DNA from: Dehalococcoidia bacterium
GTDB taxonomy: Bacteria; Chloroflexota; Dehalococcoidia; GIF9; UBA5629
DNA: 64,000 nt
Direction: 5' to 3'
Assembly: GCA_034429715.1 (NCBI GenBank)
Contig: DAOUFR010000013.1
Coordinates: 56,095 to 120,094, forward strand
How positions within the stretch are numbered: the first letter of the stretch is position 1; every line of letters starts with the position of its first letter. The notes under the pieces were generated by a model that was not told where the DNA came from, ran no database searches, and was given only the letters and a program-made list of their open reading frames with translations. Shown here piece by piece: positions 13,832 through 55,517 of this stretch. The translations under genes and the position numbers were made by a program.

Positions 13832-13845
13832 AATCTTTGCCTCCT

Positions 13846-31689: not shown

Positions 31690-33048
31690 ATGCAGGACAA
31701 ATTGTTTTCCGTTATCCGCAAGCTCAAAGCTGATTACGTCGAGGTCCGCCTTGATGAGAGCCAATCGAGCCGTCTGGTCTTCCGGGGCGAGCGCCTGGAA
31801 GAGGCGGGCAGGACGGCCGGCGCGGGCGGATGCGTGCGCGCGCTGGTGAAAGGAGGATGGGGCTTTGCCAGCTTTAACAGTCCGGGCAGGATGGAGGAGA
31901 GCGCTGCCCTGGCGGTGGAGCAGGCTGCCCGTGTGGGAAAAGGAAAGAGCGAGTTCAGCCCCGCCCGGGCCGTCGTCGATAAGGTTGACGCCGAGTATAA
32001 GAAGAATCCTCTGGCAGTCCCCCTCTCGGCCAAGAAGTCCCTGCTGGATGAGTATAACCGCATCATGCTTGAAACACCGGACATCCAGACTACCAGCATC
32101 GGTTACGGTGATATCAGAAAAAAGGTAATTTTCGCCAGCTCCGACGGCTCTTATATCGAGCAAAGCCGCATAGACTTGAACCTGCGCCTGTCGGCCATCG
32201 CCAGCCGCAACGGCGACGTCCAGCAGGTCGGCCTGAGTATAGGCAGCAAGGGTGATTTCTCAACCGTGGAAGGCCTGCAAGAGAAGGTGCGGGGCATCGC
32301 CCGGCGGGCCGCAGCCATGCTCTCCGCTCCCGAGGTCAAAGGGGGAACCTACACCGTGGTCCTTGACCCGGTGCTGGCGGGCGTATTCGTTCATGAGGCA
32401 TTCGGCCATCTCTCAGAAGCAGATCATATCTATGAGAATCCCCAGATGCGGGAGATAATGGTTCTGGGACGCAGGTTCGGCGGACAACATCTCAATATCG
32501 TGGACGGCGCGGCCTTGCCGGGCCTGCGCGGCAGCTACAGGTATGACGACGAAGGGACGCCGGCCGGCAAGACTTATTTGATCAAAGAAGGGGTGCTCAA
32601 CAGCCGGCTTCATTCCCGTGAGACGGCCGCCAAAATGGGGGAGAAACCCACCGGCAACGCACGGGCTATTAATTATGCTTATCCACCCATAGTGCGTATG
32701 ACCAATACCTATATCGAGCCGGGATCCACCACGTTCGACGAGATGATTGGCGGGATCAAGGAGGGCGTTTACGCCAGGGACTGGTACGGCGGCACAACCA
32801 GCCTCGAGATGTTCACTTTCTCTGCCGGTGAAGCCTACATGATCAGGGATGGTAAGATCGCTGAGATGATCAGACCGGTGGTCCTGAGCGGCAACGTCTT
32901 CACAACGCTGCACAATATAGATGCGATCGGCAACGACCTTGATATGAACCAGGGCGGCGGCTGCGGAAAAGCCGGCCAATCGCCGCTGCCCGTCTCCAAC
33001 GGCAGCCCTCACATAAGAATTCAGAACTGCCTGGTGGGGGGCAAATAA
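31690..33048 (+). CDS. tldD: metalloprotease TldD
   Basis: TldD/PmbA-family fold with the conserved HExxxH-like region (HEAFGHLSEADH) and a Gly-rich C-terminus. Confidence 0.85.
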   Translation: MQDKLFSVIRKLKADYVEVRLDESQSSRLVFRGERLEEAGRTAGAGGCVRALVKGGWGFASFNSPGRMEESAALAVEQAARVGKGKSEFSPARAVVDKVDAEYKKNPLAVPLSAKKSLLDEYNRIMLETPDIQTTSIGYGDIRKKVIFASSDGSYIEQSRIDLNLRLSAIASRNGDVQQVGLSIGSKGDFSTVEGLQEKVRGIARRAAAMLSAPEVKGGTYTVVLDPVLAGVFVHEAFGHLSEADHIYENPQMREIMVLGRRFGGQHLNIVDGAALPGLRGSYRYDDEGTPAGKTYLIKEGVLNSRLHSRETAAKMGEKPTGNARAINYAYPPIVRMTNTYIEPGSTTFDEMIGGIKEGVYARDWYGGTTSLEMFTFSAGEAYMIRDGKIAEMIRPVVLSGNVFTTLHNIDAIGNDLDMNQGGGCGKAGQSPLPVSNGSPHIRIQNCLVGGK

Positions 33049-33049
33049 A

Positions 33050-34348
33050 ATGGAAGAGATACTTGAGATCGCCCGCAGGTCTGCAGACAGCGCCGAGGTC
33101 TGCCGCGTAACATCCATCAGGACTCCGGTCCAGTTCGAGGCCAACCGCCTCAAGCAGATCCAGACCAAGGAATCGGTCTCCGTCGCCCTTCGCCTGATCA
33201 AGAACGGTAAAATGGGCTTCGCCCAGGCCAGCGGTGATATCGCTCCCGCCGACCTGGTTGACATGGCACTCGAGACCAGCCAGTTCGGCTACCCGGTGGA
33301 CTTCGACTTCCCCGTACTCGGGCCTTTTGAAGAAGTCGCCGTCTACGATCCGCAGGTCGAACGTGTCGGAATCAATAGTCTGATCAGCCTCGGCCAGGCC
33401 GTCGTCGACGCCGTGTGTGCCAATACGCCCGGTATACTCTGCGAGGGAAGTATATCGCGCGGTATGTCCACCTTCGAAATCGCTGTCAGCGGAGGCGGGC
33501 GCGCATCATGCAAGCGCAGCAATTTCAGTATCAGCATGGACGGTATGCTGGTCAGGGACGGGGACATTCTGTATGTCGGCGACATACGCAGCTCCTGCCG
33601 TCCCATCACCGACCCTGAGCCGGTTGCGGGCGAGATCATCAGGCAGCTCGACCTGGCCAGGAACAATGCTTCCATCAAGTCGGGCGGCATGCCGGTGATT
33701 TTCACGCCTTTCGGCGTGGCAGGCTCGCTTCTGGCCCCGCTCATATCCGCCTTTAACGGCAAGACCGTGCTGGACGGCGCCTCGCCCATCAAAGATAAAA
33801 AGGGCGCGGTTATATTCGACAGCAGACTATGCTTATCTGATGATCCCACCATACCCTACCAGCCGGGAAGCACACCTTTCGATGACGAGGGGATGCCGGC
33901 AAGGCGCAACGCTCTGATAGACCACGGGAAGGTGGTCCAATTCTATTATGACCTGCATACGGCGGCGCTGGCCGGATCATCGAGCACGGGCAATGGCGGC
34001 CGCAACGGTGGAATGCCCGCCCCGGCGGTCCACGCGCTGGTGATCGAAGGCGGTAAGATATCCCTGGCTGATATGGTCAAAGATATGAAAGAAGGTCTGA
34101 TCATCGAGCAGATGATGGGCGCCGAACAGGGAAACATACTCAACGGGGATTTCAGCGGCAATGTGCTGCTGGGTTACAAGGTTGAGGAAGGGGAAATCAC
34201 CGGCAGGGTCAAGGACACCATGGTCTCCGGCAACGTATATCAGCTATTGAAAGAGGTCCTGGCCATGGGCAGCGACAGCCGCTGGATAGCCGGCTACGTG
34301 AATACACCAAGCATCTACTGCCCCTCTATCTCCGTTGCAGCGAAATAA
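33050..34348 (+). CDS. pmbA: TldE/PmbA-family protease partner
   Basis: TldD/PmbA family member lacking the metal-binding motif. Start is 2 nt after the tldD stop. Confidence 0.8.
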   Translation: MEEILEIARRSADSAEVCRVTSIRTPVQFEANRLKQIQTKESVSVALRLIKNGKMGFAQASGDIAPADLVDMALETSQFGYPVDFDFPVLGPFEEVAVYDPQVERVGINSLISLGQAVVDAVCANTPGILCEGSISRGMSTFEIAVSGGGRASCKRSNFSISMDGMLVRDGDILYVGDIRSSCRPITDPEPVAGEIIRQLDLARNNASIKSGGMPVIFTPFGVAGSLLAPLISAFNGKTVLDGASPIKDKKGAVIFDSRLCLSDDPTIPYQPGSTPFDDEGMPARRNALIDHGKVVQFYYDLHTAALAGSSSTGNGGRNGGMPAPAVHALVIEGGKISLADMVKDMKEGLIIEQMMGAEQGNILNGDFSGNVLLGYKVEEGEITGRVKDTMVSGNVYQLLKEVLAMGSDSRWIAGYVNTPSIYCPSISVAAK

Positions 34349-34353
34349 AAGAA

Positions 34354-35169
34354 ATGAAGAAACTGGTCAATTTTCGCAAGGAACCGCGGCCGCACGCCTG
34401 CGACATGGTGGCGGCATGGCCGGGCATCGGCAACCTGTCCCTTATCGTAACGCGCTACCTGAGGGAGAAGCTGGGCGCAGAGGAGATAGGGGAGATCGAG
34501 CCCTTCACCTTCTTCGACCCCATCGGCGTGATGGTTAAAGACAACATCGTCGAAACTCCGCAGTTCCCCGAAGGCAAGTTCTTCTACTGGCATAATGCAT
34601 CCGGCAAAAAGGACATCCTCTTTTTCATCAGCGACGAGCAGCCGGCCTACAAAGGTTACGACCTGGCAAACTTTATTCTCGATATAGCCAAGAAATTCAA
34701 GGTCCAGCGTATCTACACATTTGCAGCCGCCATCGCCAAGATCCACCATACTGAGCAGCCCAAGGTATGGGGCGTGGCCACCGACGCGTCGCTGGTCGCC
34801 TACCTCAAGAAGTTTGACGTCGTGCTGCGCGGCCGCCTTCAGATCGCCGGATTGAACGGCCTGCTGCTGGGGGTTGCCAGGGAGCGCTCCATGGAAGGCA
34901 TCTGCCTCCTGGGGGAGGTCCCCTCTTACACCACGCGAATACCCAATCCCAAGGCTTCGCTGGCCGTATTGAAGGTGCTGCTTCAGGTGCTGGAAGTCGA
35001 GATCGATCTCAGCGAGCTGGCCAAAATCGCCGAGGAGTCGGACCAGCAGATGAAACGGCTGGCTGCGCAGGCGATGGGTGAATATATAGACCGCTACACG
35101 CGTCCGGTATGGCCGCCCCCGGAGGACGAGGGCGAATTCGAGGACGAAGAGGAAGAGGAGGAGGAATGA
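34354..35169 (+). CDS. PAC2-family (proteasome-assembly-chaperone-2-like) protein with an acidic Glu-rich C-terminal tail
   Basis: PAC2/DUF75-like fold length and motifs. C-terminus EDEGEFEDEEEEEEE. Start is 6 nt after the tldE stop. Confidence 0.55.
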   Translation: MKKLVNFRKEPRPHACDMVAAWPGIGNLSLIVTRYLREKLGAEEIGEIEPFTFFDPIGVMVKDNIVETPQFPEGKFFYWHNASGKKDILFFISDEQPAYKGYDLANFILDIAKKFKVQRIYTFAAAIAKIHHTEQPKVWGVATDASLVAYLKKFDVVLRGRLQIAGLNGLLLGVARERSMEGICLLGEVPSYTTRIPNPKASLAVLKVLLQVLEVEIDLSELAKIAEESDQQMKRLAAQAMGEYIDRYTRPVWPPPEDEGEFEDEEEEEEE

Positions 35170-36098
35170 GTGAATCACAGCCACCGCTGAGTGAAATCAT
35201 CGCGAAAACACTGTATTCGAATGATGAGATCAGTCACTCCGACCTGGTCCGGCTATCTGATTTGAGTGATGACGACCTGTCGCAATATAAGAGGGCCTGG
35301 AACAGCGCCCACCTGGAAAGGCGCGCGCTGATCATATCTAAACTATGTAGCCTGGGCGAGGACGACGCCAGGCTGGATTTCACACGCATATTTAAGTTTT
35401 GCCTCGATGATGTCGATGCCGGTATACGTATCAAAGCGCTGGAGGGTCTGGAGCTGGAAGACAAATACAATTTCGCACTACCTGTAATCAAAACGCTCAA
35501 GATGGATGAGTCGCCGGAGGTAAAGGAAGCCGCCGCCCGGGTGATGGGCAAATTCGCACTCATGGCTGAGCTGGGGGAGCTTCCTTCGGCTGTGGGTGAC
35601 GATATATTCGATGCCCTGCTCGGCGTGCTGGAGAATCCTTCCGAACCCGATTCGTTGCGAAGGCGGGCGCTGGAGTCCATCTCACCCTTCCGGCAGGAAC
35701 TCGTGGCAAGCTACATTGAGGACTTTTACTTCAGCGAGAACCCGGCGCTCAAGACCAGCGCCATATTCGCCATGGGTCGCAACTGCGATCCCCGCTGGCT
35801 GGATTACCTGAATAAAGAGCTGCAGGATAGCAACGCACGGTTTCGATTCGAGGCGGCACGGGCCTGTGGCGAGATAGAAGAAGAGGATACCGTCCCCGGC
35901 CTTCTGAATTTATTAAACGACAACGATCACGAGGTGCAGGAAGCCGCCATCGCAGCCCTGGGCAAAATCGGCGGCCAAAAGGCCAGGGACGCCCTAAACA
36001 AATTGAAAACATCACCTGAAAACAGGATTAAAGAAGCGGCCATGTCCGCGCTGACAGAGCTTGAGATTTGCCAGGATCCACTATCTTCGAGTTCCTGA
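35166..36098 (+). CDS. HEAT/PBS-lyase repeat protein
   Basis: GGAGGA Shine-Dalgarno before the ATG at 35166, which overlaps the PAC2 stop. Repeated HEAT-like units (VRIKALEGL, VKEAAARVMG, EVQEAAIAALGKIG). Confidence 0.6.
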   Translation: MSESQPPLSEIIAKTLYSNDEISHSDLVRLSDLSDDDLSQYKRAWNSAHLERRALIISKLCSLGEDDARLDFTRIFKFCLDDVDAGIRIKALEGLELEDKYNFALPVIKTLKMDESPEVKEAAARVMGKFALMAELGELPSAVGDDIFDALLGVLENPSEPDSLRRRALESISPFRQELVASYIEDFYFSENPALKTSAIFAMGRNCDPRWLDYLNKELQDSNARFRFEAARACGEIEEEDTVPGLLNLLNDNDHEVQEAAIAALGKIGGQKARDALNKLKTSPENRIKEAAMSALTELEICQDPLSSSS

Positions 36099-36628
36099 AA
36101 CGGCAATCTGTGCTTGCAGGGGACAAAGTCCGGCTGCGTCCCCGCCGGCTGGATGACGCCGCAGCCGAGTACAGATGGCGTATGGATGAAGAGCTGTGCC
36201 GCTTGGACGCCACTGAACTACTCACATGTAGCTACGAAGAATTCCATTTGAAATACAGCGCTGAACTGGAGTTCCCCGGCCTGACCCACACCCTCGCCAT
36301 CGATACACTGGACCCCATCCATATAGGAAGCTGCAGCCTTTTCAATTTTAACCTGGCGGGAAACACGGCCGAAATTGGGATAATGTTGGGCGATAAGACG
36401 TACTGGGGGCGCGGTTACGGGGAAGACGCATTGAACACCTTTATGCTCGACATTTTCGAGGTCTCCGGCCTGCAGAGCCTGATCCTGCGTACGCTTGACT
36501 GGAACGTGCGCGCCCGGACCTGCTTCGAGAAATGCGGCTTCGTGCCACGCGGAGATATAGTGCGAGGGGAGCACCGTTTCGTAATCATGCAGGCGGAGCG
36601 GGGAGCGGTGCTGAACAAAGGTCAGTGA
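36068..36628 (+). CDS. GNAT-family N-acetyltransferase (RimJ/RimL-like)
   Basis: GNAT acetyl-CoA binding core (WGRGYGEDAL). The true start may be the GTG at 36110 or the ATG at 36179. Confidence 0.7.
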   Translation: MPGSTIFEFLKRQSVLAGDKVRLRPRRLDDAAAEYRWRMDEELCRLDATELLTCSYEEFHLKYSAELEFPGLTHTLAIDTLDPIHIGSCSLFNFNLAGNTAEIGIMLGDKTYWGRGYGEDALNTFMLDIFEVSGLQSLILRTLDWNVRARTCFEKCGFVPRGDIVRGEHRFVIMQAERGAVLNKGQ

Positions 36629-37548
36629 ACCGCTATGGGCGAGGCGTCTGTTATGATACGGCGCGACCGGCCCAGCTTGCGGCGCAGCCTCAGCGGCAGC
36701 GAGAAAAGCCCCCGGTGGGCGATCCCGTCATAAGAACGCAGCTTGCCGCTGACCCTGTCCGCCATCCTGCTGTTGATCTCCCTGGGCGACAGGCGCGCCG
36801 GATCGAGCAAGTCGGATGCTGTATGAAATCCCCACAGGTCGACAAAGGACGGCACATAGACCTGGTACGGGCGCACGATCTTGAAGATACTTTTTAAAGT
36901 GCCGTTGATGGCCACGAAATTATGCAGGTTGATCCAGCCGGACTGGCCGGACTGCACCACCATGATGCCTCCCGGCTTCAGTTTGTCCCTGACGAGCTTG
37001 TAGAATTCCTGCGTGTAAAGCATGCGGGCCGGGCCCTCCTCCACCGGGTCGGCCAGGTCGATCACAGCGACATCGAAACGTTCTCTTGTCTCGGCGATGT
37101 ATTTTCTGGCATCGTCGTGGAGGACGACCGCTCTTTTGTCATCGAATGAGCCCTGGTGAAAGGTCGGCAGGTACTTGCGGCACAGCCTGACCACCTCACC
37201 ATCGATATCCACCATCACCGCCCTGCTTACCGTCCTGTGTTTCAGCACATCGCGCAGGGTTGCCCCCTCGCCGCCGCCGGCTATAAATACCTTCTCAGGA
37301 TTGGGATGGGCCAGCATGGCCGGATGGACCAGGGATTCGTGATAGATGAACTCGTCTTTTTCACCGGATTGGATCTTTCCGTCCAGCACCAGGCAGATCC
37401 CGAAGGTATGGGTCTGGGATATCTGAGCATGCTGAAAGCGGGTTTTCCTGTCGTGCAGTACCCGCCGCACACCATGGATCTGCACCAGGTCGTCGGACAG
37501 CTCATCGATGAGCCACCTTTTGCTGTCGAAATAGTCCGGCCTGGCCAT
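36622..37548 (-). CDS. speE: polyamine aminopropyltransferase (spermidine synthase)
   Basis: Spermidine-synthase N-terminal tetramerisation domain and the Rossmann VFIAGGGEG (GGGDG-like) motif. Confidence 0.85.
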   Translation of the reverse strand: MARPDYFDSKRWLIDELSDDLVQIHGVRRVLHDRKTRFQHAQISQTHTFGICLVLDGKIQSGEKDEFIYHESLVHPAMLAHPNPEKVFIAGGGEGATLRDVLKHRTVSRAVMVDIDGEVVRLCRKYLPTFHQGSFDDKRAVVLHDDARKYIAETRERFDVAVIDLADPVEEGPARMLYTQEFYKLVRDKLKPGGIMVVQSGQSGWINLHNFVAINGTLKSIFKIVRPYQVYVPSFVDLWGFHTASDLLDPARLSPREINSRMADRVSGKLRSYDGIAHRGLFSLPLRLRRKLGRSRRIITDASPIAVH

Positions 37549-37923
37549 CTACCTTCCCGCAGCCGCCGGGCTCTCCATCATGACGCCCCGTTTCAACTCT
37601 ATATAAGATGTAGATTTGGCTTTCAATTTCTCTGCCAGAGGCTTGACGGCCTTTGCCGGCTGGATTACCTCGCCGCAGGTAAAAACATCCACAGCGGCGT
37701 AGCAGAATTCCGGCCACGTATGTATGGATATATGCGATTCCGCGATGATGACAACGCCGCTGATCCCCTGCGGTGAAAACTGGTAAAAGGAATCTTTGAT
37801 CACCGTCGCCCCGATCAATATCGCCACTGCGTTGAGCGCCTCCCTTAGATATTCCATATCGTTGAGAAGCCCTGCGTCGCAGTCCTTCAATTCCAGCAGC
37901 ATATGTTTTCCCAGGGCGGCCAA
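37549..37923 (-). CDS. speH: S-adenosylmethionine decarboxylase proenzyme (small prokaryotic type)
   Basis: AdoMetDC class 1 self-cleavage region ESHISIHTWPE. Adjacent to speE. Confidence 0.85.
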   Translation of the reverse strand: MAALGKHMLLELKDCDAGLLNDMEYLREALNAVAILIGATVIKDSFYQFSPQGISGVVIIAESHISIHTWPEFCYAAVDVFTCGEVIQPAKAVKPLAEKLKAKSTSYIELKRGVMMESPAAAGR

Positions 37924-38040
37924 GCGGTTTCCCTCCTTATGACATTACATAAATCATAAAACATGCTATTATTAATGCGAAACAGAGTGTAATTTTATAT
38001 TTTATGTTGACTTATTTCAAGAAATACCTTAAGCTGCCTA

Positions 38041-38069
38041 TTGACAAAGTCTATTTGACCTTGTAAAAT
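38041..38069 (+). promoter_or_regulatory. near-consensus sigma70-type promoter for the Cys-rich secreted protein gene
   Basis: TTGACA (38041-38046), 17-nt spacer, TAAAAT (38064-38069). AAGGAGG Shine-Dalgarno at 38090-38096. GTG start at 38105. Confidence 0.5.
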
Positions 38070-38104
38070 GCGTTCAAAATTCACTATTTAAGGAGGCGTA
38101 TGCC

Positions 38105-38788
38105 GTGAGGAGAATTTTTGGAACCCTCGTTGCAATCGTAGTGGCTTTATCTTTAGTTTTGATACCGGCCACTGTCTCAGCCGACCTCGGCAAATGCACG
38201 GGTTGGGACAAAGTTAAATGGGAAAACAACCAGAATTCCTGGAAGCTATACCTCCAGCACTGGGGAAGGACGCCCACGAGCGCCATGTCCCGACTTGCTG
38301 GTTTATGCGGCCCGGATAAGCTTTGTTCCGGCGTGTGCAACACTTCCCAATGTCCGAAGCCCACGGGCTGCGACATCGCTGAATGCCTGGGTGGATGCAG
38401 CAACTGCAATACACAGGCGGGAACTCTTGGATCTGCATGTGACGATTCCAAGAAATGTCTCAACCCCGAGACCAAGCCCACCTCTCTACCTCTGGATGAC
38501 TGCCCGCTCAATTGCCCGGCCAATGCCACCACCGCAGGCCTCGGCACTTCCAAGTGCTCCGGCTGCTGGGGCAAGAGCCTGTCCTATGCCAACAAGAGCT
38601 GGGCTGCCGCCGATGTCGGCACGAGGGCCAACATCAATAACAGCCACATGAACCACAGGGGCACATCTCCCATCGGTGGCGGTGACTGGGGTATCACCGG
38701 TTGCCCGCATCCCGAGTGTGTGTCTCTCACCTGGTGCCTGCAGAACAACCTTCTGGCCAAGTGCAAGGTCTGCAGCAGCGGCAAATAA
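38105..38788 (+). CDS. secreted cysteine-rich protein (227 aa, about 26 Cys), unknown family
   Basis: N-terminal signal peptide (LVAIVVALSLVLIPATVSA). Many CxxC, CxC and CSxC spacings. Own strong promoter, Shine-Dalgarno and terminator. Confidence 0.7.
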   Translation: MRRIFGTLVAIVVALSLVLIPATVSADLGKCTGWDKVKWENNQNSWKLYLQHWGRTPTSAMSRLAGLCGPDKLCSGVCNTSQCPKPTGCDIAECLGGCSNCNTQAGTLGSACDDSKKCLNPETKPTSLPLDDCPLNCPANATTAGLGTSKCSGCWGKSLSYANKSWAAADVGTRANINNSHMNHRGTSPIGGGDWGITGCPHPECVSLTWCLQNNLLAKCKVCSSGK

Positions 38789-38814
38789 ATCTCGATACAA
38801 TTGATTTGAAAATA

Positions 38815-38853
38815 AATAAGCGCTGCCTCGATCGGCAGCGCTTATTTATTTTA
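38815..38853 (+). terminator. rho-independent terminator
   Basis: Perfect 10-bp stem aagcgctgcc-[tcgatc]-ggcagcgctt followed by atttattttat. Confidence 0.75.
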
Positions 38854-38869
38854 TCCTGATTACAGTTAC

Positions 38870-39109
38870 ATGGACGAGAAAGAAAAGCTGGTTACTGTCT
38901 ATAAAGCCTGCGGGCAACCTGAGGCCGAGATAGTGAGGGGCAGGCTCGAGATAGAAGGTATACTTGCCCTGCTTAAATACGAAAGCATTGGCAGCGTATA
39001 CGGTTTGACGGTGGACGGTCTGGGCCAGGTGGAGGTACAGGTGCCCGCCAGGTTTGCCGACCGGGCAAGGGAGATAATCGGGTCAGCCGGCGACGAAGTC
39101 GAAGATTAA
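38870..39109 (+). CDS. DUF2007-family small protein
   Basis: About 79 aa. KLVTVY...EAE..R..LE..GI motif typical of DUF2007. Confidence 0.55.
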   Translation: MDEKEKLVTVYKACGQPEAEIVRGRLEIEGILALLKYESIGSVYGLTVDGLGQVEVQVPARFADRAREIIGSAGDEVED

Positions 39110-39117
39110 ACGGCCCT

Positions 39118-40170
39118 TTATTTCAGCCCGAGCGCGGCGTTGAGGGACTTATAATCGAATCTGCTGTCGAGCAGAGCGGACATAGCCTGCAGCTTCTGTA
39201 CCTGATGGAAGCCCGCGCCAGCCAGCGATTGCTCGATCCCCTTGACTATTTCATTGATATCTCTGTCAACCACGATCACCGGCACCTTTTTATCCTCGGA
39301 TTTGACCATGACCGATGTCGAAGGCCTTTTGCCGCTGACCACCAGGCATTTGGTCGAAGTCTCCAGCGCAGCGAGCTGCATGTCGGCCCGCTCATGGCGG
39401 GTGACCACGGCCTTGTTGCGCAGCCTGTTATAGTAATCTCTGGCTGAATCGGGCGACATGGCGCCCAGCATAACGTTCTCCACCAGCTCGCCGGCCTTGT
39501 CCTTAAAATTGATGATCTCCCCACCCACAGCGCCGGCGATCTCCCCCACCGTCACGCCCAGCAGTGCTCTCGATTCGGGCAGCACGCCCAGCACCACGAT
39601 GCCCTTCTCTTTAAAGTAGGCGGCACATTCCGCCTGGACCGGGGTTATCCTGGAAGAAGGCACCTGGTTCAACACCACTCCTACCAGCCTGCTCCCCAAT
39701 TTTTCGGCCGCCTGCAGGATACCCGCCTCGCGGTAATCCGAGCACCAGCAGAGCAGAAGTATCACACGGGCATCGAGCTTCTCGGCGATGGTATACGCAG
39801 CCAGGGTGGATACCTGGTCATTCTTGAATGCTCCGGGACTTTCGATTATCAGGACATCTTTGCCGGCGCCGGCCTTATCGCAGGCCGATTTAATTCCGGC
39901 GGAGAAGTTCTCAGCATCCTCCGAGAGGCTGCGCCACAGCTCCTCCTGTTTGATATGTATCGGGCAGAGGAGTTCCCTGCTCTCGCCCAGCTCGAGGGCC
40001 TGACCGATAAAGGCCGCATCCAGGCATTCCTCTCCGGCGCCCTCCGCTTTTACATGGATGGGCTTAATATAGCCGACCCTTTTACCCGAATTGGCCAGTT
40101 TTTTACCTATACCGGCGCATAATGCCGTTTTCCCGCAGGGATCATAAGCCGCGATAAGTAAATTAGTCAT
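39118..40170 (-). CDS. P-loop (CobQ/Pta N-terminal-like) plus DRTGG domain protein
   Basis: N-terminal P-loop-like DPCGKTALCAGIGKKL resembling the Pta N-terminal / AAA_26 domain, followed by a DRTGG-type domain. Confidence 0.55.
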   Translation of the reverse strand: MTNLLIAAYDPCGKTALCAGIGKKLANSGKRVGYIKPIHVKAEGAGEECLDAAFIGQALELGESRELLCPIHIKQEELWRSLSEDAENFSAGIKSACDKAGAGKDVLIIESPGAFKNDQVSTLAAYTIAEKLDARVILLLCWCSDYREAGILQAAEKLGSRLVGVVLNQVPSSRITPVQAECAAYFKEKGIVVLGVLPESRALLGVTVGEIAGAVGGEIINFKDKAGELVENVMLGAMSPDSARDYYNRLRNKAVVTRHERADMQLAALETSTKCLVVSGKRPSTSVMVKSEDKKVPVIVVDRDINEIVKGIEQSLAGAGFHQVQKLQAMSALLDSRFDYKSLNAALGLK

Positions 40171-43724: not shown

Positions 43725-45317
43725 ATGGCAGAAGGTGAACCGCAGACCGGTCCGAAGTTTTGCCGCCAGTGCGGCGGTGTAGTACCCGAGGGGACCCCGA
43801 TCTGCCCGCGCTGCGGCCAGAAGTGGTACATGGATCGCGTGGAGCAGCAGGGAGCGGACCTCTGGCAGAAGATCATTGAGAAAAGGGCGGCGGCTGGGAT
43901 CGGTGAAGCCGGTCCGTCTCAGGAACAGAAGCAGTACCGCTGCCCCAACTGCATGGCGGTGCTGCAGGGACCTTCGCCTACATGCCCGCACTGCGGGAAA
44001 AGCACGGCTAAAGCCAGGATCATTCCGCCCGGGAAGGAGGATGAGGCGTCTATTGAAGAGACCGCCGAAGCTCTGAACCTGCCGCCTGCGGCAAAAGGTC
44101 TGGCCTCCATCAAGGGCGCTTCCCAACGCGCAGAGAGAAAGGGCGGCCGGCGCCGGGTCAAAACCCTCGATATTATAATCGGCATTGTTATCATAATTAT
44201 TCTGCTGGGCGTCGGTTACATGTTAGCCAGGCAATACGGCGTCCTGCCTTCATCTCTGACCTTCTTCAATCCGCCCCAGCAACAGGAGGTGCCACCGGAG
44301 CCGACCACCACGGCTGAGAAGGTATCCGATATAGCTATATCGGATATAACCTCGGATGGAGCAGCCATCGCCTGGACCACCCCCGAGCCTGCCTGGGGCA
44401 AAGTCCTATACGGCAAAACGGAGTCCTACGGGGATTCTGCCGCCGCCGTCCTGCAGGGCAGTGCCCAGAAGGTCACACTCAGCGGGCTCGAGCAGTCCAC
44501 GACCTACCACTTCGCTGTAATGGTAACGGACGGTAAGGGCAACGAGCTTTACCGCAGCAATGACCATATGTTCGATACGGTCCAGCGGGTGAACACCACG
44601 CCGCCCGTCGTGACCGGGTTCAAGGTCTTGCCCACGGACGTAAGCGCCGTTATAAGCTGGACCACCGACAACCCTTCCAGCAGCCAGGTGCTTTATGGAT
44701 CGGACGCGTCATGTTCAAGCTCCACCGTCGAGGATACCAGGATGCTCACGGACCACCTGGTGCGTATTCTCGGCCTCGAGGCTAACAGCAGCTATTATTA
44801 CCGCATCAGGTCGGTGGACGCCGATGGGAACGTGGCAACGATGGATCCCCCCAATATATTCACCACCCTGGTCGCAGTGCCCACCGGGCCGCGAATCGGC
44901 GACAGGGCGCCTGATTTCACACTCCCCCTGTTCGGGAAACAGGAGACAATTTCGCTGCGCGACTACCGCGGTCAGAAGGTCCTGCTCACGTTCTGGGCCG
45001 TTTACTGCCCCGAATGCGACCGTGAGCTGTCTTTGCTGCAGTCCATCCAGGATAAAAATATGCCCGGTGTCAAGATCATAGCCGTCTTCATGGAGAGCAA
45101 GCTGGATGACATAGAGAAAACCATCACCAAGTACAAGTCAGAGCGCGGCGAACTCACGGTGCCGGTGGTGTTCGATATGTATAAGACCACAGCCCATTTA
45201 TACAATGTAGAGAAAGCGCCCTATACGGTGTTCATCGATGGTGAAATGATCATCCGCGATATCGAACCGGGCAACTTCAATATTGAGCAGGTCGAGAGGA
45301 CGCTTAATACTTTATAG
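43725..45317 (+). CDS. membrane protein: 2 cytoplasmic zinc ribbons, 1 TM helix, 2 FN3-like repeats, C-terminal TlpA/ResA-like thioredoxin domain (CPEC)
   Basis: CRQCG...CPRCG and CPNC...CPHCG ribbons. Hydrophobic helix LDIIIGIVIIIILLGVGYML. Two W/Y-x-T FN3-like modules. Redoxin motif FWAVYCPEC. Confidence 0.7.
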   Translation: MAEGEPQTGPKFCRQCGGVVPEGTPICPRCGQKWYMDRVEQQGADLWQKIIEKRAAAGIGEAGPSQEQKQYRCPNCMAVLQGPSPTCPHCGKSTAKARIIPPGKEDEASIEETAEALNLPPAAKGLASIKGASQRAERKGGRRRVKTLDIIIGIVIIIILLGVGYMLARQYGVLPSSLTFFNPPQQQEVPPEPTTTAEKVSDIAISDITSDGAAIAWTTPEPAWGKVLYGKTESYGDSAAAVLQGSAQKVTLSGLEQSTTYHFAVMVTDGKGNELYRSNDHMFDTVQRVNTTPPVVTGFKVLPTDVSAVISWTTDNPSSSQVLYGSDASCSSSTVEDTRMLTDHLVRILGLEANSSYYYRIRSVDADGNVATMDPPNIFTTLVAVPTGPRIGDRAPDFTLPLFGKQETISLRDYRGQKVLLTFWAVYCPECDRELSLLQSIQDKNMPGVKIIAVFMESKLDDIEKTITKYKSERGELTVPVVFDMYKTTAHLYNVEKAPYTVFIDGEMIIRDIEPGNFNIEQVERTLNTL

Positions 45318-45387: not shown

Positions 45388-47211
45388 TTGGACAGCCAGT
45401 TCAGATGTAAATGCGGCAAGCCGATGGCCTACTCAAACGAGCCGTGCAAAGACTGCGGCAGCCTCGGCCCGCATGCCTATGCCGGCAAGCCCGGCCCCCC
45501 GGCCCCGACCACGCAGGTCCCACCCCAGCAAAGGCGACCTGAGAATATGCCTGTCGACAGGGGTGAGTGGCAGCCTCCTGCATCCACCGGACATGAGGCC
45601 CCGGTCAATTACGAGCCTGATACTACCGACATCGCAAAGGGGCGCGGCCACCACGATACCGCAGGGTTCCCCGTCGGAATCAGCCGCAGGGCCGAGATTC
45701 TCAACCACATAGAGGGCATGGACAGGGAGGACAGGAATGGGCCGTCCAGGCAGCCCCGCAAAGAAAAGAAGCGGACGTCCGACGGTGATTGGGATACCGA
45801 CGAAAGGCCTGCCAGGGTCAAACACTACGAATCCTTCCTCGACGAGGGGGAGGAGGAGGAGAAGCCGCGCAAGAGAGGCGGAGGTCTCGCAGGAAGTATC
45901 ATCAGCATCATACTGGTCGTGGCACTGATAATAGGCGCTCTCTGGGCCTACAGTAATCAGGAAGAGATATCCGGCTGGCTGATGTCACCCACAACCCCGG
46001 AAACGGTTCCTGCCTCGGATCAGCCTGCAAATTCCTCCGGTTCCGGACAGGGTCCCTTTGCCGGCCTGCTGGCGATATTTGGATGGGGAAAAGCGGCGCC
46101 GGTATCCTCCGACAATACCAGTTCGCCGGCCGCATCATCCAACCAGACGGAGCCGGCCGCCACGGACAACGTGCAGACTCCGGTAACGCCCGCCGTGCCT
46201 TCGGATACGACACTTCCCGTTATATCCGAGATACTCATAACGTCCATCACCGATCACGGCGCCAAGGTGACATGGAAGACGGATGAACTCTGCACCGGCA
46301 GGATCACCTATAAGACTGAGGTAGGCGAACCTCACCTCGTTAATGGGGCGGTCACACCCACCCGTTATCATCAGGCCGATTTCAGCGAACTTGAAAGCGG
46401 CAAAACTTATTACATAACCATCATCAGCCGCGATGACTCCGGCAACGAGGCTAAACAGGAGCGGAGCTTCCAGACGTTATTATCGGCCGCAGATACGGCC
46501 GCGCCTCAGCTAACCAGCGAGCCGACAGCATCGGCCAGCGACAGGAATGCCACCATCTCCTGGAAAACAAACGAGAAGGCCAAATCACAGGTCAAATACA
46601 GCCTGGGCACGGGATACGATTTCCCGTCCGGCTTTACTTATGAGTTCAGCAATACTCATAGCGTCTTCCTCAGCGGGCTTTCGCCCAACACGGAGTACCA
46701 TTACCAGCTTATATCCAGAGACGCCTCAGGTAACGTGATGACATCCGGTGATTACACTTTCAAGACCGAGCCCGAGACAGGGGCTGCTCCCTACATGGGC
46801 AGCAAGGCCCCCGATTTCACGCTGCGGAACCTACAGGGTGAGACTGTATCTCTCAGCCAGTTCCGCGGCCAAAAGGTCATCCTCAATTTCTGGGCCAGCT
46901 GGTGTACGCCCTGCAAGATTGAGCTGCCGCATTTCCAGACGCTTTGGGCCAGGTATAATCCGGGCGCCGACTTTGTCATCCTGGCCGTGGCCGGCAGCCA
47001 GTCGGATGAGTCTATTATCAGGGACTTCATTACCGACGGCAATTACACTTTTCCCGTTTGCCTCGATCCGGGCGACGAGGCCTTCAACAAGTATGAGCTT
47101 ACCAGCATACCCAAGACCTACTTTATCGATAAAGACGGCGTCATCCGCAGGATACAGCAGGGCATGTTCACGGGGCCGGGCGAGATCGAGTTCATGCTCA
47201 ACTCGTACTGA
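45388..47211 (+). CDS. membrane protein paralog: zinc ribbon, charged linker, TM helix, 2 FN3-like repeats, TlpA-like thioredoxin domain (WCTPC)
   Basis: CKCG...CKDCG ribbon. TM SIISIILVVALIIGALWAY. FN3-like repeats. Classical thioredoxin active site FWASWCTPC. Confidence 0.7.
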   Translation: MDSQFRCKCGKPMAYSNEPCKDCGSLGPHAYAGKPGPPAPTTQVPPQQRRPENMPVDRGEWQPPASTGHEAPVNYEPDTTDIAKGRGHHDTAGFPVGISRRAEILNHIEGMDREDRNGPSRQPRKEKKRTSDGDWDTDERPARVKHYESFLDEGEEEEKPRKRGGGLAGSIISIILVVALIIGALWAYSNQEEISGWLMSPTTPETVPASDQPANSSGSGQGPFAGLLAIFGWGKAAPVSSDNTSSPAASSNQTEPAATDNVQTPVTPAVPSDTTLPVISEILITSITDHGAKVTWKTDELCTGRITYKTEVGEPHLVNGAVTPTRYHQADFSELESGKTYYITIISRDDSGNEAKQERSFQTLLSAADTAAPQLTSEPTASASDRNATISWKTNEKAKSQVKYSLGTGYDFPSGFTYEFSNTHSVFLSGLSPNTEYHYQLISRDASGNVMTSGDYTFKTEPETGAAPYMGSKAPDFTLRNLQGETVSLSQFRGQKVILNFWASWCTPCKIELPHFQTLWARYNPGADFVILAVAGSQSDESIIRDFITDGNYTFPVCLDPGDEAFNKYELTSIPKTYFIDKDGVIRRIQQGMFTGPGEIEFMLNSY

Positions 47212-47350: not shown

Positions 47351-49576
47351 ATGCCCAGCACGGTTATCTGCCAGAGGTGTCATGAGATCAATGAACCCAA
47401 CGCTACAGTCTGCCAGAAATGTGGCGCGAGGTTCTGCCCGCATTGCCACCTGTTAATCCCCTCACCCGACGCGGCCATCTGCCCGCACTGCGGCAAGAAA
47501 GATCTATCTTTCAGGCCGGGTAAATATTCCGCCGGCAATGTCGCAGCTTCGACGGTGGCGCCGGGCGCCATGCCGGCCAGCAGGTATGTCTGCCCGAGCT
47601 GCGGGAACAGGATAGATCCTTCGCTGGGCAAGTGCCCCTATTGCGGCCAGCTGGGAAACCGTTTCACCATGATTCCCACGCAGGGCCACGGCGTGATGAA
47701 GCCCGCCCAGGGCGACTACGCCCACACATTCGCGGCGCCTCCCCCCGCCGAGGAGGGACAGAGCACGCAGAAGGTCTGTTCCAAGTGCGGCCGTGTCATA
47801 CCGCCCGGCTCCAGCCTGTGCCCTGTGCACGGCAAGTTCGGGGGCGGCAACGCGCTGAGAAATATCACTCCTCCCGTCAGGGACAAGACATTTGAGGGAG
47901 AAGTATACAAGAGGATGGAGGAGAGGAAGGCCGGCCCCGCTCCCCGTTCCAGCGTCAGGCAGGTAGCGCCGGAGGAGATATATCCGCAGATGCAGGCCGC
48001 TCCGGCTACGCCGGAGGCGCCGGCCGCGCCCGCTGAGCAACGCACCTGTTCCAACTGCGGGAATGCCGTGCCCGACCGCAGCAAGGTCTGCCCCACCTGC
48101 GGCAACAACCGTCTTCCGCCGGAGAGGAAAAAGCCCTTTTTGAAGGCCGAGGACCGCTATAGGGCTGTGGAGGCTGCGCAGCAGGCTTACGCCGCATATC
48201 CACCTCAGCAGCAGGCCTATGCAGCATATTCTGCGCCGCAGCAGAGCCAGTATTACGGGCAGCCGGCGGTGCAGCCGTACGAGATGGCCTACCCGGCGCC
48301 GTCGCCCGGATTCGTAGAGGAGATTTATCCTGAGAAAAAACGCGGGAAGGAGAAAATGCCCCGTGAGCGCAAGGAGAGGATGGCAAAGCCGGGGCAGAGG
48401 TCTTCCCCCATTCCCATACTGCTGGCGCTTATCGCGCTGGCCGGGGTCATCATCATCGGAGTCGTATTCCTGATCGACCAGCTCAAGACGCCCGCGCCAG
48501 CCGTTATTAGCAATCCCCCCATCACAACTCCCACCGGCACAACCGAGGGACCCGAGATATCCGAGGTCGAATATTCCAATATCACGCGTACCGGCGCTAC
48601 CGTGACCTGGAAAACCGACAAAGAGTCCAACAGCCTGGTGATCTACTGTCTGGAGGGTGGTACCCTCTGCGAAAACGCCAGGGACAACGAGCTGGTCACC
48701 AACCACAGTGTCAACCTGACCAATCTCGAACAGGGCACATCATATCACATAACCGTGAAATCGGCGCTGGGCGACGATCCCGATTCGCCGGACTCCAGCC
48801 TGGAGGTCACGGGCGTTCTGACCACCCTGAACGTACAGGATACGACACCGCCGATACTCAGCAATGTAAAGGTCACCAATGTCACCAGCGGAGGGTCGGC
48901 GGAGATCACCTGGAACACCGACGAGCCGGCCACCAGCCAGGTCAGCTACGGGACGTCCGCCAGTTACGGAACACTGCAGCCTTCGCAGACCGACACCCAG
49001 CTGACTACCTTCCACGATGTGATGCTCAACGGGCTGGCGCCGCAGACGACCTTCCATTACAAGGTGATATCGAGGGATGCCGACGGCAACGAGAAGTCGT
49101 CCGCCGATGCCACATTTACAACGCCCGTCCCGGCCGGAGCAAATATTGGAAATTCGGCGCCCGATTTCACACTGCAATGCGCGGACGGTACCCAGGTGAC
49201 GCTCAGCTCGCTGCAGGGCAAGAAAGTCATCGTCAACTTCTGGAATTTAAACTGCCACTTCTGCATGGAGGAGATGCCCGATTTTCAGACTGTGCGTGAT
49301 AACCATACCGACAGCAGTGTGGCCATACTGATGATCAACAGCGCCGCCGGAGGATTCCCCGCCAACAATAATGTGTACGTAGGTAATGAGATTACAACTA
49401 ACGAGTGGACCTTCACTGTTCCATTGGACGACTCCGGCGCCGTTGCCCAGGCCTACGACGTAATGAGCGGCATACCGGTGACCTTTTTCATCGACTCCAG
49501 CGGAATCATCAGGGCCAAGCAGGACGGCAAATTCCTCAGTGCAGACGCCATCGAGGCCAAGCTGAGTTCTTATTAA
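47351..49576 (+). CDS. membrane protein paralog: 5 zinc ribbons, Pro/Gln/Ala-rich linker, TM helix, 2 FN3-like repeats, TlpA-like thioredoxin domain (CHFC)
   Basis: Five CxxC...CxxCG ribbons. TM IPILLALIALAGVIIIGVVFLI. FN3-like repeats. FWNLNCHFC redoxin motif. Confidence 0.7.
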   Translation: MPSTVICQRCHEINEPNATVCQKCGARFCPHCHLLIPSPDAAICPHCGKKDLSFRPGKYSAGNVAASTVAPGAMPASRYVCPSCGNRIDPSLGKCPYCGQLGNRFTMIPTQGHGVMKPAQGDYAHTFAAPPPAEEGQSTQKVCSKCGRVIPPGSSLCPVHGKFGGGNALRNITPPVRDKTFEGEVYKRMEERKAGPAPRSSVRQVAPEEIYPQMQAAPATPEAPAAPAEQRTCSNCGNAVPDRSKVCPTCGNNRLPPERKKPFLKAEDRYRAVEAAQQAYAAYPPQQQAYAAYSAPQQSQYYGQPAVQPYEMAYPAPSPGFVEEIYPEKKRGKEKMPRERKERMAKPGQRSSPIPILLALIALAGVIIIGVVFLIDQLKTPAPAVISNPPITTPTGTTEGPEISEVEYSNITRTGATVTWKTDKESNSLVIYCLEGGTLCENARDNELVTNHSVNLTNLEQGTSYHITVKSALGDDPDSPDSSLEVTGVLTTLNVQDTTPPILSNVKVTNVTSGGSAEITWNTDEPATSQVSYGTSASYGTLQPSQTDTQLTTFHDVMLNGLAPQTTFHYKVISRDADGNEKSSADATFTTPVPAGANIGNSAPDFTLQCADGTQVTLSSLQGKKVIVNFWNLNCHFCMEEMPDFQTVRDNHTDSSVAILMINSAAGGFPANNNVYVGNEITTNEWTFTVPLDDSGAVAQAYDVMSGIPVTFFIDSSGIIRAKQDGKFLSADAIEAKLSSY

Positions 49577-49793: not shown

Positions 49794-50252
49794 GTGATTG
49801 ACAAGATTGACCGTAAACTGATTATCGAACTACAGAAAGATGGCCGTTACAGCTGTGCATCTTTAGCAAAAAAGCTGGGAATCGGTATATCATCCGTATC
49901 CAGAAGGATCAGACGATTACAGCAGGAAAAGATAATTAAAGTCATAGCCGTGCCAAACGCTGAAAAGCTGGGGCTTGTGGCAACTGCAATAATTGGAATG
50001 GATGTCGATATTGATAAGATAGACAGCGTGTGCTCCAAGCTTGTTATTCACGAAAACATACTCAACGTGGCAATTACTTTTGGGCGGTACAATGTACTGA
50101 TTGAAGCCTATCATCAATCTACAGAGGCATTGCTCAATTTTCTTAAGAATGAACTTTCACAGATCGATGGAATACGCAGTATAGAGACTTACTATATTGC
50201 CGAACTCAAGAAGCGTACCTACGGTTTATTGCAGGAACATATTCAAGCTTAA
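49794..50252 (+). CDS. Lrp/AsnC-family transcriptional regulator
   Basis: N-terminal HTH (DRKLIIELQKDGRYSCASLAKKLGI) and C-terminal RAM/ACT-like domain. GTG start. Confidence 0.8.
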   Translation: MIDKIDRKLIIELQKDGRYSCASLAKKLGIGISSVSRRIRRLQQEKIIKVIAVPNAEKLGLVATAIIGMDVDIDKIDSVCSKLVIHENILNVAITFGRYNVLIEAYHQSTEALLNFLKNELSQIDGIRSIETYYIAELKKRTYGLLQEHIQA

Positions 50253-50301: not shown

Positions 50302-51498
50302 TCACATGACTACTTTATCATGACGCAGATCAGCCATTTTCTTACTATTGTAACCAAGCTCTTTTAATATTTCGGCGGTGTGTTCACCCAGAAACGGCCC
50401 GAAACTTCTTACTCCGCCCGGTGTATCAGAGAGTTTAATAGGCAGACCCACCTGCTTTACCTTTCCCTCAGTCGGATGGTCGAGTTCAAGCATCATCTTG
50501 CGGTGCGCGATCTGAGGATCGGAAAAAACCTCACCAAGCTGATAAACAGGAGCAATACATATATCTTTGCTTTTCAAGAAATCAAACCATTCATCTCTGG
50601 TTTTTGTCAGAAAAATACGTTGGAAACAATCTCTTATCGCTTCCCTTTCCTGTCCGCCAGCAAATTGCTTCGGTATGAAATCCTCTTTGCCTAAAGACCT
50701 GCAAAGGTTCTCCCAGAATTTTGGTTCAAAGCACCCCAAAGTGATATAACCGTCATCTTTAGTTCTATAAACAGTAGCCCAGGGAAAGACGCCGCTAAAC
50801 ATGGTATTCCCCCTTCCGGGTTCGTCTCCCGTCATAAAATAATCAGAGATGAAGCGAACCAATAACGAAACAACTCCATCGGTCATCGATATATCCAGGT
50901 ATTGTCCCCTGCCGGATTTTTGCGCTGCTATTAAAGCCAGCAGAATACCGACAGTCGCCATTAAGCCACCACCTGCGTAATCAGCCAGTAAATTCAAAGG
51001 TAATACGGGGGCTTCACCCGAATTGCCGATCAGGCCTAATGCACCTGCAATCGCGATGTAATTTGGATCATGTCCGGGCAATCCAGCATAAGGCCCGGTC
51101 TGACCATAGCCGCTGATTGAACAGTAGATCATCCTTGGATTGATCCGGCGAATATTCTCATAATCTATGCGGAGACGTTTGACCACACCGGGTCTGAATC
51201 CATCTACGATTACATCTGCTTTACAGGCAAGTTGCATAAAAATGGCGTGTCCCTGCTCTGTTTTAAGATCGATCGCTATACTTTTCTTGTTTCGCAGCAG
51301 CGCCGTAAATGCAGTTGCCGCCCTTCCACTTTCTCCCTTCAGGGGAGATACACCAGATCCAAAGATCGGTTCGTCTTGTCCCCTCGGCTGTTCAACCTTT
51401 ATCACTTCCGCGCCCATATCTGCAAGCATCATCGTACAGTAGGCATGCGGTGCAACACGGCTCAAATCTAAAACTCGTATGCCATCTAATGGGCCCAT
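50302..51498 (-). CDS. family III CoA-transferase (CaiB/BaiF family)
   Basis: N-terminus GPLDGIRVLDLSRVAPHAYC. Conserved catalytic Asp region of CaiB/BaiF. Confidence 0.85.
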   Translation of the reverse strand: MGPLDGIRVLDLSRVAPHAYCTMMLADMGAEVIKVEQPRGQDEPIFGSGVSPLKGESGRAATAFTALLRNKKSIAIDLKTEQGHAIFMQLACKADVIVDGFRPGVVKRLRIDYENIRRINPRMIYCSISGYGQTGPYAGLPGHDPNYIAIAGALGLIGNSGEAPVLPLNLLADYAGGGLMATVGILLALIAAQKSGRGQYLDISMTDGVVSLLVRFISDYFMTGDEPGRGNTMFSGVFPWATVYRTKDDGYITLGCFEPKFWENLCRSLGKEDFIPKQFAGGQEREAIRDCFQRIFLTKTRDEWFDFLKSKDICIAPVYQLGEVFSDPQIAHRKMMLELDHPTEGKVKQVGLPIKLSDTPGGVRSFGPFLGEHTAEILKELGYNSKKMADLRHDKVVM

Positions 51499-51652
51499 TC
51501 AGGTACCTCCATCTAAATATCGATCGGTTATCAAGCTGTTCACCATTCCATCGGGCGGCTCAAAGGGAGGCGCGGGCAATTGACCCGCCTCCTGCATGTT
51601 ATGTCGACTGCCACAATAAATACCGTGGCTCAGGCTATTTCAAAGGCTTATC

Positions 51653-52945: not shown

Positions 52946-52985
52946 TTAAAACTACCTCCCCTCGCTTTTTATTTCATATGGGCCG

Positions 52986-55465: not shown

Positions 55466-55517
55466 TGATTAATCTCCTGCCATTAGAGCATTAAATAAAT
55501 ACCTGGAACACCCTGCT

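Follow-up and report, generated by a model that had tools for sequence, protein, structure and literature searches.

The cysteine-rich gene at positions 38105-38788 (plus strand) of a 64,000-nt stretch of Dehalococcoidia DNA (contig DAOUFR010000013.1 of GenBank assembly GCA_034429715.1, positions 56,095 to 120,094; this whole stretch is the window referred to below, and all positions in it are counted from its first letter) is a stand-alone, monocistronic gene for an exported protein from an orphan family that is specific to this lineage of uncultured Dehalococcoidia. The pattern in which cysteines are kept and lost across this family points to disulfide partners, and the gene is preceded in its relatives by a near-consensus promoter that has been maintained despite wide divergence of the protein. 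Because a core gene, a conserved near-consensus promoter and extreme stabilization of the product occur together here, the most economical role is that of an abundant structural or protective protein outside the cell or at its surface, a reading to which we give about an even chance of being correct.

The coding sequence, which is supported by its substitution pattern, its homologues and a conserved start position, begins with GTG and specifies a product of 227 amino acids. No in-frame start further upstream is usable, since stop codons close the alternatives, and the ATG at 38100, which opens the sequence ATG-CCG-TGA, lies in another frame. The mature protein is predicted to have ∼201 residues and a mass of ∼20.8 kDa, and the full-length product contains 8 tryptophans and 20 cysteines. 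This cysteine content of 8.8% is nearly three times that of the next-highest gene in the window (maximum 3.2%). An earlier note on this DNA, made from the letters alone, had put the number of cysteines at about 26, which was too high, and had described irregular CxxC, CxC and CSxC spacings. The CxxC spacing was indeed present three times (CSNC-N, CSGC-W and CKVC-S), together with three CxxxC and several Cx4-5C spacings, but CxC was absent.

If the cysteines are paired in disulfides, their number would be expected to be even and they would be expected to come and go together. In exported proteins, a bias toward even numbers of cysteines is an established sign in genomes that disulfides are formed enzymatically (Daniels et al. 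2010, PMC2823432). We found an even count in 77 of the 81 cluster representatives of the family and in 66 of the 68 species orthologues, with totals ranging from 10 to 30. The odd counts were those of one fragment and three full-length members in the cluster set, and of one copy with a mis-set start and one truncated copy in the species set. Among the 81 cluster representatives, C200 and C211 were both present in 50 and both missing in 31, with no discordant member; C68 and C74 were likewise perfectly concordant (both in 58, neither in 23, discordant 0). C101 and C118 occurred together in 62 and were jointly missing in 17, with 2 discordant members, and C31 and C220 were both present in 30 and both missing in 45, with 6 discordant members. 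Ser, Ala or Gly stood in for the lost cysteines, and only C94, C98, C133, C137, C151 and C205 were conserved in at least 93% of the family. The even totals and the paired gain and loss thus point to cysteines that are disulfide partners rather than metal ligands, with up to 10 disulfides predicted in this organism and 5-15 across the family.

The same residues could instead serve as metal ligands or as a thiol pool, as they do in metallothioneins, copper storage proteins or Fe-S proteins, and a metal-binding or redox role was among the candidates that the earlier note had put forward. The 20 cysteines in 201 mature residues, the three CxxC motifs, the RRxF sequence with which the signal peptide of the window's protein begins, and the anoxic, metal-limited habitats indicated by the record titles would all suit such a protein. 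However, only ∼6 of the 20 cysteine positions reach 93% conservation, whereas the rest are lost in pairs, leaving even totals of anywhere from 10 to 30. The protein contains neither a CxxCxxCxxxCP nor a CxxCH motif and matches no Fer4-type or other Pfam family at E-values up to 10, and the RR pair is not conserved, which makes export of a folded cofactor protein by the twin-arginine translocation (Tat) system unlikely. On these grounds we consider a metal-binding or redox function very improbable. The individual candidates of this kind were rejected as follows: an Fe-S protein for want of a motif or Fer4 match and for the poor conservation of the cysteine positions; a c-type cytochrome, as none of the three CxxC motifs is followed by H; and a metallothionein or Csp-type storage protein, given that only 6 positions are at least 93% conserved in a family spanning 10-30 cysteines. 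Csp1-type copper storage proteins are exported, and the cysteines of Csp1- and SmtA-type proteins are conserved ligands. The present family resembles Csp1 and the metallothionein SmtA in its high cysteine content but differs from them in that its cysteines are variable, paired and dispensable, and in that no family match was found.

The second body of evidence concerns expression. A sigma-70-type promoter at 38041-38069 (plus strand) consists of a −35 element TTGACA at 38041-38046, a 17-nt spacer and a −10 element TAAAAT at 38064-38069, with a predicted transcription start near 38076. It scores 11 of 12, and only 5 sites on both strands of the window, this promoter included, score at least that high. 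A Shine-Dalgarno sequence, AAGGAGG, lies at 38090-38096, 8 nt before the GTG codon, and is conserved in the orthologues. We surveyed the 63 orthologous loci whose available upstream sequence was 150 nt or longer, taking the best promoter match within that stretch. The −35 element was TTGACA in 62 of these and TTAACA in the remaining one, the spacer was exactly 17 nt in all 63, and the −10 element read TAnAAT in all 63 and TAAAAT in 51, giving an overall score of 11/12 at 60 of the 63 loci. A Shine-Dalgarno sequence of GGAGG or longer was found no more than 20 nt from the start in every one of the 63, and the start codon, although variously GTG, TTG or ATG, occupied an equivalent position. Both promoter and Shine-Dalgarno sequence were kept even where protein identity was only ∼40%. 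The description of these signals as unusually clean, given when the DNA was first read, is strengthened by this comparison with the orthologues.

Downstream of the gene, an intrinsic terminator is predicted at 38809-38852 (plus strand), with a G/C-rich stem at 38820-38827 and 38834-38841, a loop at 38828-38833, and the flanks AAAATAAATAA and TTATTTATTTT. The hairpin has a predicted folding free energy of −31.8 kcal/mol (z-score −7.8), and none of 200 shuffled sequences was as stable. What had been described as a 10-bp GC hairpin followed by a run of T was correct as to the stable hairpin and its T-tract; the core, however, is an 8-bp G/C-rich stem, GCGCTGCC paired with GGCAGCGC (7 G-C and 1 A-T pairs), extended by 11 A-U pairs and followed by TTATTTATTTT. 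An automated terminator scan did not call this hairpin, probably because the stem continues into the T-tract. At least 39 of the 63 orthologous loci had a G/C-rich hairpin followed by a T-tract downstream of the gene. Within the close clade the stem varied by compensatory substitutions (GCGCTGCC, GGGTTGCC, GCGCGGCAC, GCGTCCCG, GCGCGACC and others), while the flanks AATAAATAA and TTATTTATT stayed constant. The presence of promoter and Shine-Dalgarno sequence at 63 of 63 loci, together with the compensatory changes in the terminator, indicates that these signals exceed what chance would produce. Since the near-consensus promoter has been kept despite wide protein divergence, it appears to be under selection for strong, probably constitutive, monocistronic expression, and we infer from the sequences that transcription of the gene is strong and probably constitutive.

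Several further features of the upstream region were recorded. The earlier observation of an AT-rich stretch of about 180 bp before the gene was accurate: the divergent intergenic region at 37924-38104, between speD on the minus strand and the cysteine-rich gene, is 181 bp long and has 32% GC compared with 55% for the window, with promoter-like sites on both strands. On its minus strand, TTGAAA-17-TAAAAT (37992-38020; 10/12) and an AAGGAGG at 37938 both face speD-speE, which gives the region the look of two divergent promoters packed closely together. Loci of the more distant clade (such as L002 and L035-L050) have an additional, weaker promoter-like element, such as TTGACAAAGGGTGGTCGAACCTTTAAA, ∼30-70 nt before the start, between the conserved TTGACA-17-TAAAAT and the Shine-Dalgarno sequence; the leader there is longer, at ∼55-65 nt, and the GGGTGGTCGAACC(C)TT part is conserved. 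A search of Rfam with positions 37400-39300 gave no credible match to a leader RNA element. We also considered whether short contigs carrying family members might be transcripts and rejected this, since the contig ends take in the promoter or neighboring genes, as in ordinary metagenome contigs.

The family proved to be confined to one lineage and, almost without exception, to one place in the genome. A search of 5.8 billion clustered proteins returned 80 homologues with 38-90% identity. Every homologue named by its source is a 'hypothetical protein' of Dehalococcoidia or Chloroflexota, and a Pfam domain had been precomputed for none of the 80. When a HMMER profile was run exhaustively against 1.84 billion representatives at 50% identity, it matched 24 proteins, each either a full-length member of this family or a fragment of one, so that neither distant relatives nor other architectures were among them. 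The distribution in related genomes, which the earlier note had proposed as a check, was determined by scanning one genome per GTDB species. This yielded 69 loci, all in metagenome-assembled genomes (MAGs) labelled Dehalococcoidia, Dehalococcoidales, Chloroflexota or similar, which according to their record titles came from lake sediments, deep anoxic lake water, peat, fen, aquifers and a sulfidic spring. The gene lay between speD and a DUF2007 gene in ∼64 of the ∼69 species genomes recovered, and essentially all loci with enough flanking sequence showed the order speE-speD (minus strand), an intergenic region of ∼170-270 bp, the gene, DUF2007, DRTGG/AAA_26 (minus strand), greA and lysS, a synteny that persists from 96% to ∼40% protein identity. 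The two most divergent copies (L068, 4623-5177, and L069, 6001-6555; 33-34% identity) are located away from speD, and both contigs end inside the gene. The neighbors of the L069 copy, encoding a cupin/mannose-6-phosphate-isomerase-like protein, a HAD hydrolase, an fn3/Ig protein and a LemA-GIDE protein, are functionally uninformative.

No characterized family could be linked to the protein, in agreement with the original statement that none was recognizable. The query gave no Pfam match at E-values up to 10, and a Pfam search with 23 members at E-values up to 1 gave only two chance-level matches, each to a single member (E-values of 0.17 and 0.29). NCBIfam and a profile search against PDB sequences gave no matches either, and we found no literature on the family. 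The family is best regarded as new, restricted to one lineage and of a known general kind, the secreted disulfide-rich proteins.

Selection on the coding sequence was examined through the ratio of nonsynonymous to synonymous substitution rates (dN/dS), which was 0.06-0.14 relative to close orthologues. By region it was 0.044 in the N-terminal core, 0.12 in the cysteine-rich middle and 0.17 in the C-terminal core. These values bear on the most deflationary explanation, namely that the locus holds a mobile bacteriocin-like or accessory gene, or no gene at all but a chance open reading frame (ORF), the real one being the antisense ORF at 38074-38574. The stand-alone organization, the AT-rich upstream region and the existence of that 166-aa antisense ORF could be taken to favor it. 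However, the gene is syntenic in more than 60 species and its GC content of 57% matches its surroundings. The dN/dS far below 1 in the plus frame shows that this frame, and not the antisense ORF, is coding. The start position and Shine-Dalgarno sequence are conserved, and no record in the phage and plasmid collections encodes a relative. We conclude that the gene is a vertically inherited core gene rather than part of an island, and that synteny, dN/dS and the conserved expression signals have effectively refuted an origin as mobile DNA or as an annotation artefact, for which we see next to no probability. A large bacteriocin-like peptide, another of the roles first suggested for the product, is disfavored by the same fixed syntenic locus, purifying selection and missing phage and plasmid copies, and by the lack of immunity or exporter genes nearby.

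A related but distinct possibility is that the product is a secreted inhibitor or defense effector, such as a disulfide-knotted protease inhibitor or an antimicrobial. Many disulfide-rich inhibitors and defense proteins are small, carry a signal peptide and combine a very high density of disulfides with a variable exposed insert, and by analogy the resemblance of the present protein to them in these respects may favor such a role. The switch between acidic and basic members in different clades would also be consistent with fast-evolving surface properties. On the other hand, diversifying selection was not seen even in the insert (dN/dS 0.12), inheritance is strictly vertical, each genome among the loci examined having the gene at a single fixed place, and there are no immunity, exporter or processing genes nearby and no matches to inhibitor or bacteriocin families in Pfam or NCBIfam. 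An inhibitor or effector role is therefore quite improbable in our estimation.

The protein begins with what appears by inspection to be a Sec-type signal peptide (aa 1-26, 38105-38182), composed of MRR, IFGTLVAIVVALSLVLIP and ATVSA, with the predicted cut after VSA, between MRRIFGTLVAIVVALSLVLIPATVSA and DL. The signal peptide that the earlier note had proposed was thus borne out, with its charged n-region, hydrophobic stretch and VSA-D cut site, and its pattern is kept in all complete homologues, in which A26 is at least 90% conserved. Tat export was considered and rejected: the query has RRIFG, but its relatives show RK, KK or just one basic residue (R or K) at this place. A lipoprotein was rejected as well, as there is no lipobox; the first cysteine, C31, follows L-G-K, with Lys at −1, and is found in only 35 of 81 members. 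These features point to export by Sec and cleavage by signal peptidase I rather than to a Tat substrate or a lipidated protein.

The alignments divide the remainder of the protein into two conserved halves separated by a variable segment. The N-terminal half of the core (aa 28-70, 38186-38314), in which dN/dS is lowest, has the consensus WDKVKWxxNxNSWxLYLQHWGRTPxxAMSRLAGLCGP, and the C-terminal half (aa 151-215, 38555-38749) has the consensus CxxCWGxSLxFANKSW ... NHxG ... GGDWGITGCPHxECxSxTWCLQxN. Eight tryptophans are conserved throughout the family, and the near-invariant residues are K38, W39, N42, S45, Y49, W53, T56, R63, W155, S158, K164, W166, N183, H184, D194, W195, H202, E204, W210 and N215. 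Between the halves lies a cysteine-rich insertion (aa 71-150, 38315-38554) that contains 13 of the 20 cysteines and differs in length and cysteine number between clades. A short natural variant (P0032; L032, 6001-6504) of 167 aa and 10 cysteines lacks this insertion almost wholly; it was found on 31 contigs, one of them of 1 Mb. As this variant exists nearly without the insert, the cysteine-rich middle must be dispensable. Other members are longer: the loop of the NHxG-GGDWG region takes insertions of ∼40 aa (P0029, and L026, 6001-6795, with 264 aa), P0058/P0066 (L046) reach 271-276 aa with 30 cysteines, and P0083 has 328 aa with extra cysteine-rich N- and C-terminal extensions. One architecture tried and rejected was a three-fold repeat or beta-trefoil, suggested by three xWGx motifs; hhalign comparisons between sub-profiles gave a probability of at most 6%.

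This division of the protein is also what speaks for the principal alternative, a secreted enzyme or a ligand- or glycan-binding protein of new fold whose disulfides merely stabilize it and which need be neither abundant nor structural. The near-invariant polar and aromatic residues form a cluster of the kind that such a function would suggest, the N-terminal core is very strongly constrained (dN/dS 0.044), and the dispensability of the cysteine-rich insert places the function in the core. Against this alternative, we found no similarity to enzyme or carbohydrate-binding families in Pfam, NCBIfam or PDB sequences and no functionally linked neighbor, and a near-consensus promoter kept at every locus would be expected of a bulk protein more than of an accessory enzyme. 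We regard the enzyme or binding function as possible, though on the unlikely side.

Beyond the gene itself, the window encodes proteins that may be relevant to its folding. At 11291-11833 (plus strand) is a gene for a MauE-family membrane protein (PF07291, 43.9 bits with a cut-off of 27) that contains the motif C-E-C-F-G. According to a 2026 preprint (bioRxiv 10.64898/2026.03.05.709764), MauE proteins are able to replace DsbB in E. coli, their active site is formed by a CXC motif with a highly conserved Phe-Gly after it, and they are probably the second most common bacterial disulfide-forming enzyme, acting via a thioredoxin-fold partner such as MauD or DsbA. The motif of the window's protein agrees with this CXC-Phe-Gly signature of the DsbB-replacing MauE proteins. 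The gene that follows it (11878-12621) encodes a lipoprotein that has PKD/Big_9 domains and terminates in HCCSG. In addition, three tandem paralogues (43725-45317, 45388-47211 and 47351-49576, plus strand) combine fn3 or purple-acid-phosphatase-N-like domains with a C-terminal AhpC/TSA-Redoxin thioredoxin fold of the TlpA/AhpC-like type, which carries, in order, CPEC, CTPC and CHFC. An N-terminal zinc ribbon was detected only in the first and third; in the close clade, the first keeps its synteny with the cysteine-rich gene. From their domain content these three proteins look like membrane-anchored extracytoplasmic thiol-disulfide oxidoreductases. The presence of MauE and thioredoxin-fold genes in the window makes extracellular thiol-disulfide chemistry plausible in this organism, and these proteins might act on the cysteine-rich protein.

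Taken together, the role of an abundant structural or protective surface protein would work as follows. The gene would be transcribed strongly and constitutively as a monocistron, and its product would be exported by Sec and cut after VSA26. Outside the membrane it would fold oxidatively into a hyper-stable multi-disulfide protein, for which the MauE-type (CxC-F-G) oxidase and the exported thioredoxin-fold proteins of the same window are the candidate folding machinery. The conserved, Trp-rich N- and C-terminal halves (∼125 aa, with the 8 conserved Trp) would form the functional core, between the parts of which the cysteine-rich middle would be inserted, stapled by disulfides, variable between lineages and dispensable.

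A number of observations weigh against this role. The codon bias of the gene is unremarkable, with an effective number of codons (ENC) of 48.5, mid-range for the window. Neither Pfam nor the alignments showed an anchoring module (SLH, transmembrane, lipobox or sorting signal) that would keep a soluble protein of 21 kDa on the cell, nor does the sequence end in a hydrophobic segment. Net charge varies between clades, from +8 in that of the window to −19 in others, which makes a simple electrostatic association with a surface unlikely; charge-based binding to anionic surfaces was rejected on the same range. The near-invariant polar residues N42, S45, Y49, T56, R63, K164, N183, H184, D194, H202, E204 and N215 suit an enzyme or ligand site equally well. 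AlphaFold2, run with alignments of ∼80 sequences, gave a mean predicted confidence (pLDDT) of 49 for the full protein and 52 for P0032, so that no fold could be assigned, and a Foldseek search of PDB with the P0032 model returned no hits. Finally, the link to MauE and to the thioredoxin-fold proteins is one of occurrence in the same genome only, at distances of 27 kb and 5 kb, respectively. The suggestion made at the outset of an abundant envelope- or S-layer-associated protein thus holds in part: it is the most plausible role in view of the conserved strong expression signals, whereas the anchoring that an envelope association would imply has no module to account for it, and codon bias does not support abundance.

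A more far-reaching form of this proposal is that the protein has a new fold and forms a very abundant, hyper-disulfide surface coat that is a major client of MauE-based oxidative folding in strict anaerobes, which we hold to be fairly unlikely. For a still bolder variant, in which Trp and Cys would be cross-linked into a quinone-type cofactor as in MauA, we found no evidence.

Comparison with known systems helps to place the family. Its nearest functional analogy, without homology, may be MauA, the light chain of methylamine dehydrogenase, which has six disulfides, requires MauE and the thioredoxin-fold MauD for maturation, and has functionally central Trp residues that carry its tryptophan tryptophylquinone (TTQ) cofactor (bioRxiv 10.64898/2026.03.05.709764). 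Like MauA, the present protein is small and exported and has an exceptional, here predicted, disulfide density; it has 8 conserved Trp, and the window contains a MauE homologue and MauD-like thioredoxin-fold proteins. In contrast to MauA, it shows no sequence similarity (no Pfam family at E-values up to 10), its cysteine pattern is different and its cysteine-rich part is dispensable, and the annotated genes of the 64-kb window include none resembling mauB or mauG. The general substrates of DsbA/DsbB, VKOR and MauE, and the disulfide proteins of actinobacteria, share the even-cysteine bias, which is extreme here. The present family is set apart by its cysteine content of 8.8%, far above that of any other gene in the window, and by its hosts: these are MAGs that come from anoxic sediments, peat and deep lake water, settings in which one would not expect a strategy based on disulfide-rich extracellular proteins.

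Secreted cysteine-rich proteins of eukaryotes offer a further comparison. Fungal hydrophobins and effectors and thaumatin-like proteins have signal peptides and even numbers of cysteines, all presumed to be paired, are small and lineage-restricted, and are often very highly expressed. The family resembles them in its signal peptide, even cysteine number, small size and lineage restriction but, unlike hydrophobin, thaumatin or cerato-platanin, it is bacterial, has no Pfam match and has an architecture of its own, a Trp-rich core split by a variable cysteine-rich insert.

The surroundings of the gene are as the earlier note had described them, unrelated housekeeping genes with no evident functional tie to it: speE and speD upstream, and genes for DUF2007 and a DRTGG protein followed by greA, lysS and serS downstream. 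The DUF2007 gene (38870-39109, plus strand) begins 18 nt past the T-tract of the terminator and has no visible Shine-Dalgarno sequence; in relatives it is always directly downstream of the cysteine-rich gene, at 80-670 bp. Upstream of speE, a run of genes at 31690-36628 (plus strand) encodes TldD, PmbA, PAC2 (proteasome-assembly-chaperone-like), a HEAT-repeat protein and a GNAT acetyltransferase, and this run is syntenic in relatives down to ∼47% identity of the cysteine-rich protein.

Two other regions of the window were of interest in their own right. Five genes at 50302-56681 (minus strand), encoding three CoA-transferases of family III, an MFS transporter and an acyl-CoA dehydrogenase, have a GC content at third codon positions (GC3) of 0.44-0.55 and an ENC of 56-60, compared with a GC3 of 0.61-0.78 and an ENC of 40-52 in almost all other genes. 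This block is flanked by an AsnC-type regulator gene (49794-50252) and a tRNA-Ser gene (57247-57335) and, judged by its composition, may be a horizontally acquired metabolic island. At 13421-15084 (minus strand), a gene for HcyBio (COG1900-type homocysteine biosynthesis) adjoins one for a protein with an NIL domain and a 2×[4Fe-4S] ferredoxin. Such pairs are typical of anaerobes and methanogens, and this one is consistent with an anaerobic lifestyle of the host.

An orphan family that occupies one locus, with a near-perfect promoter at 63 of 63 loci, suggests an important and probably abundant extracellular protein, and its 10-30 paired cysteines are a strong genomic indicator of oxidative protein folding outside the cell in these anaerobes. 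The family in this way ties to the recently proposed MauE pathway of disulfide formation. Should the product turn out to be a modestly expressed accessory protein, it would be one more lineage-specific hypothetical protein; an abundant product could usefully serve as a marker of the lineage in proteomic or antibody work, and would be a natural substrate on which to test MauE-type oxidases. If the surface-coat proposal, with the protein as a major MauE client, were true, it would mean that these monoderm anaerobes with small genomes depend on extracellular disulfide chemistry for the integrity of their envelope.

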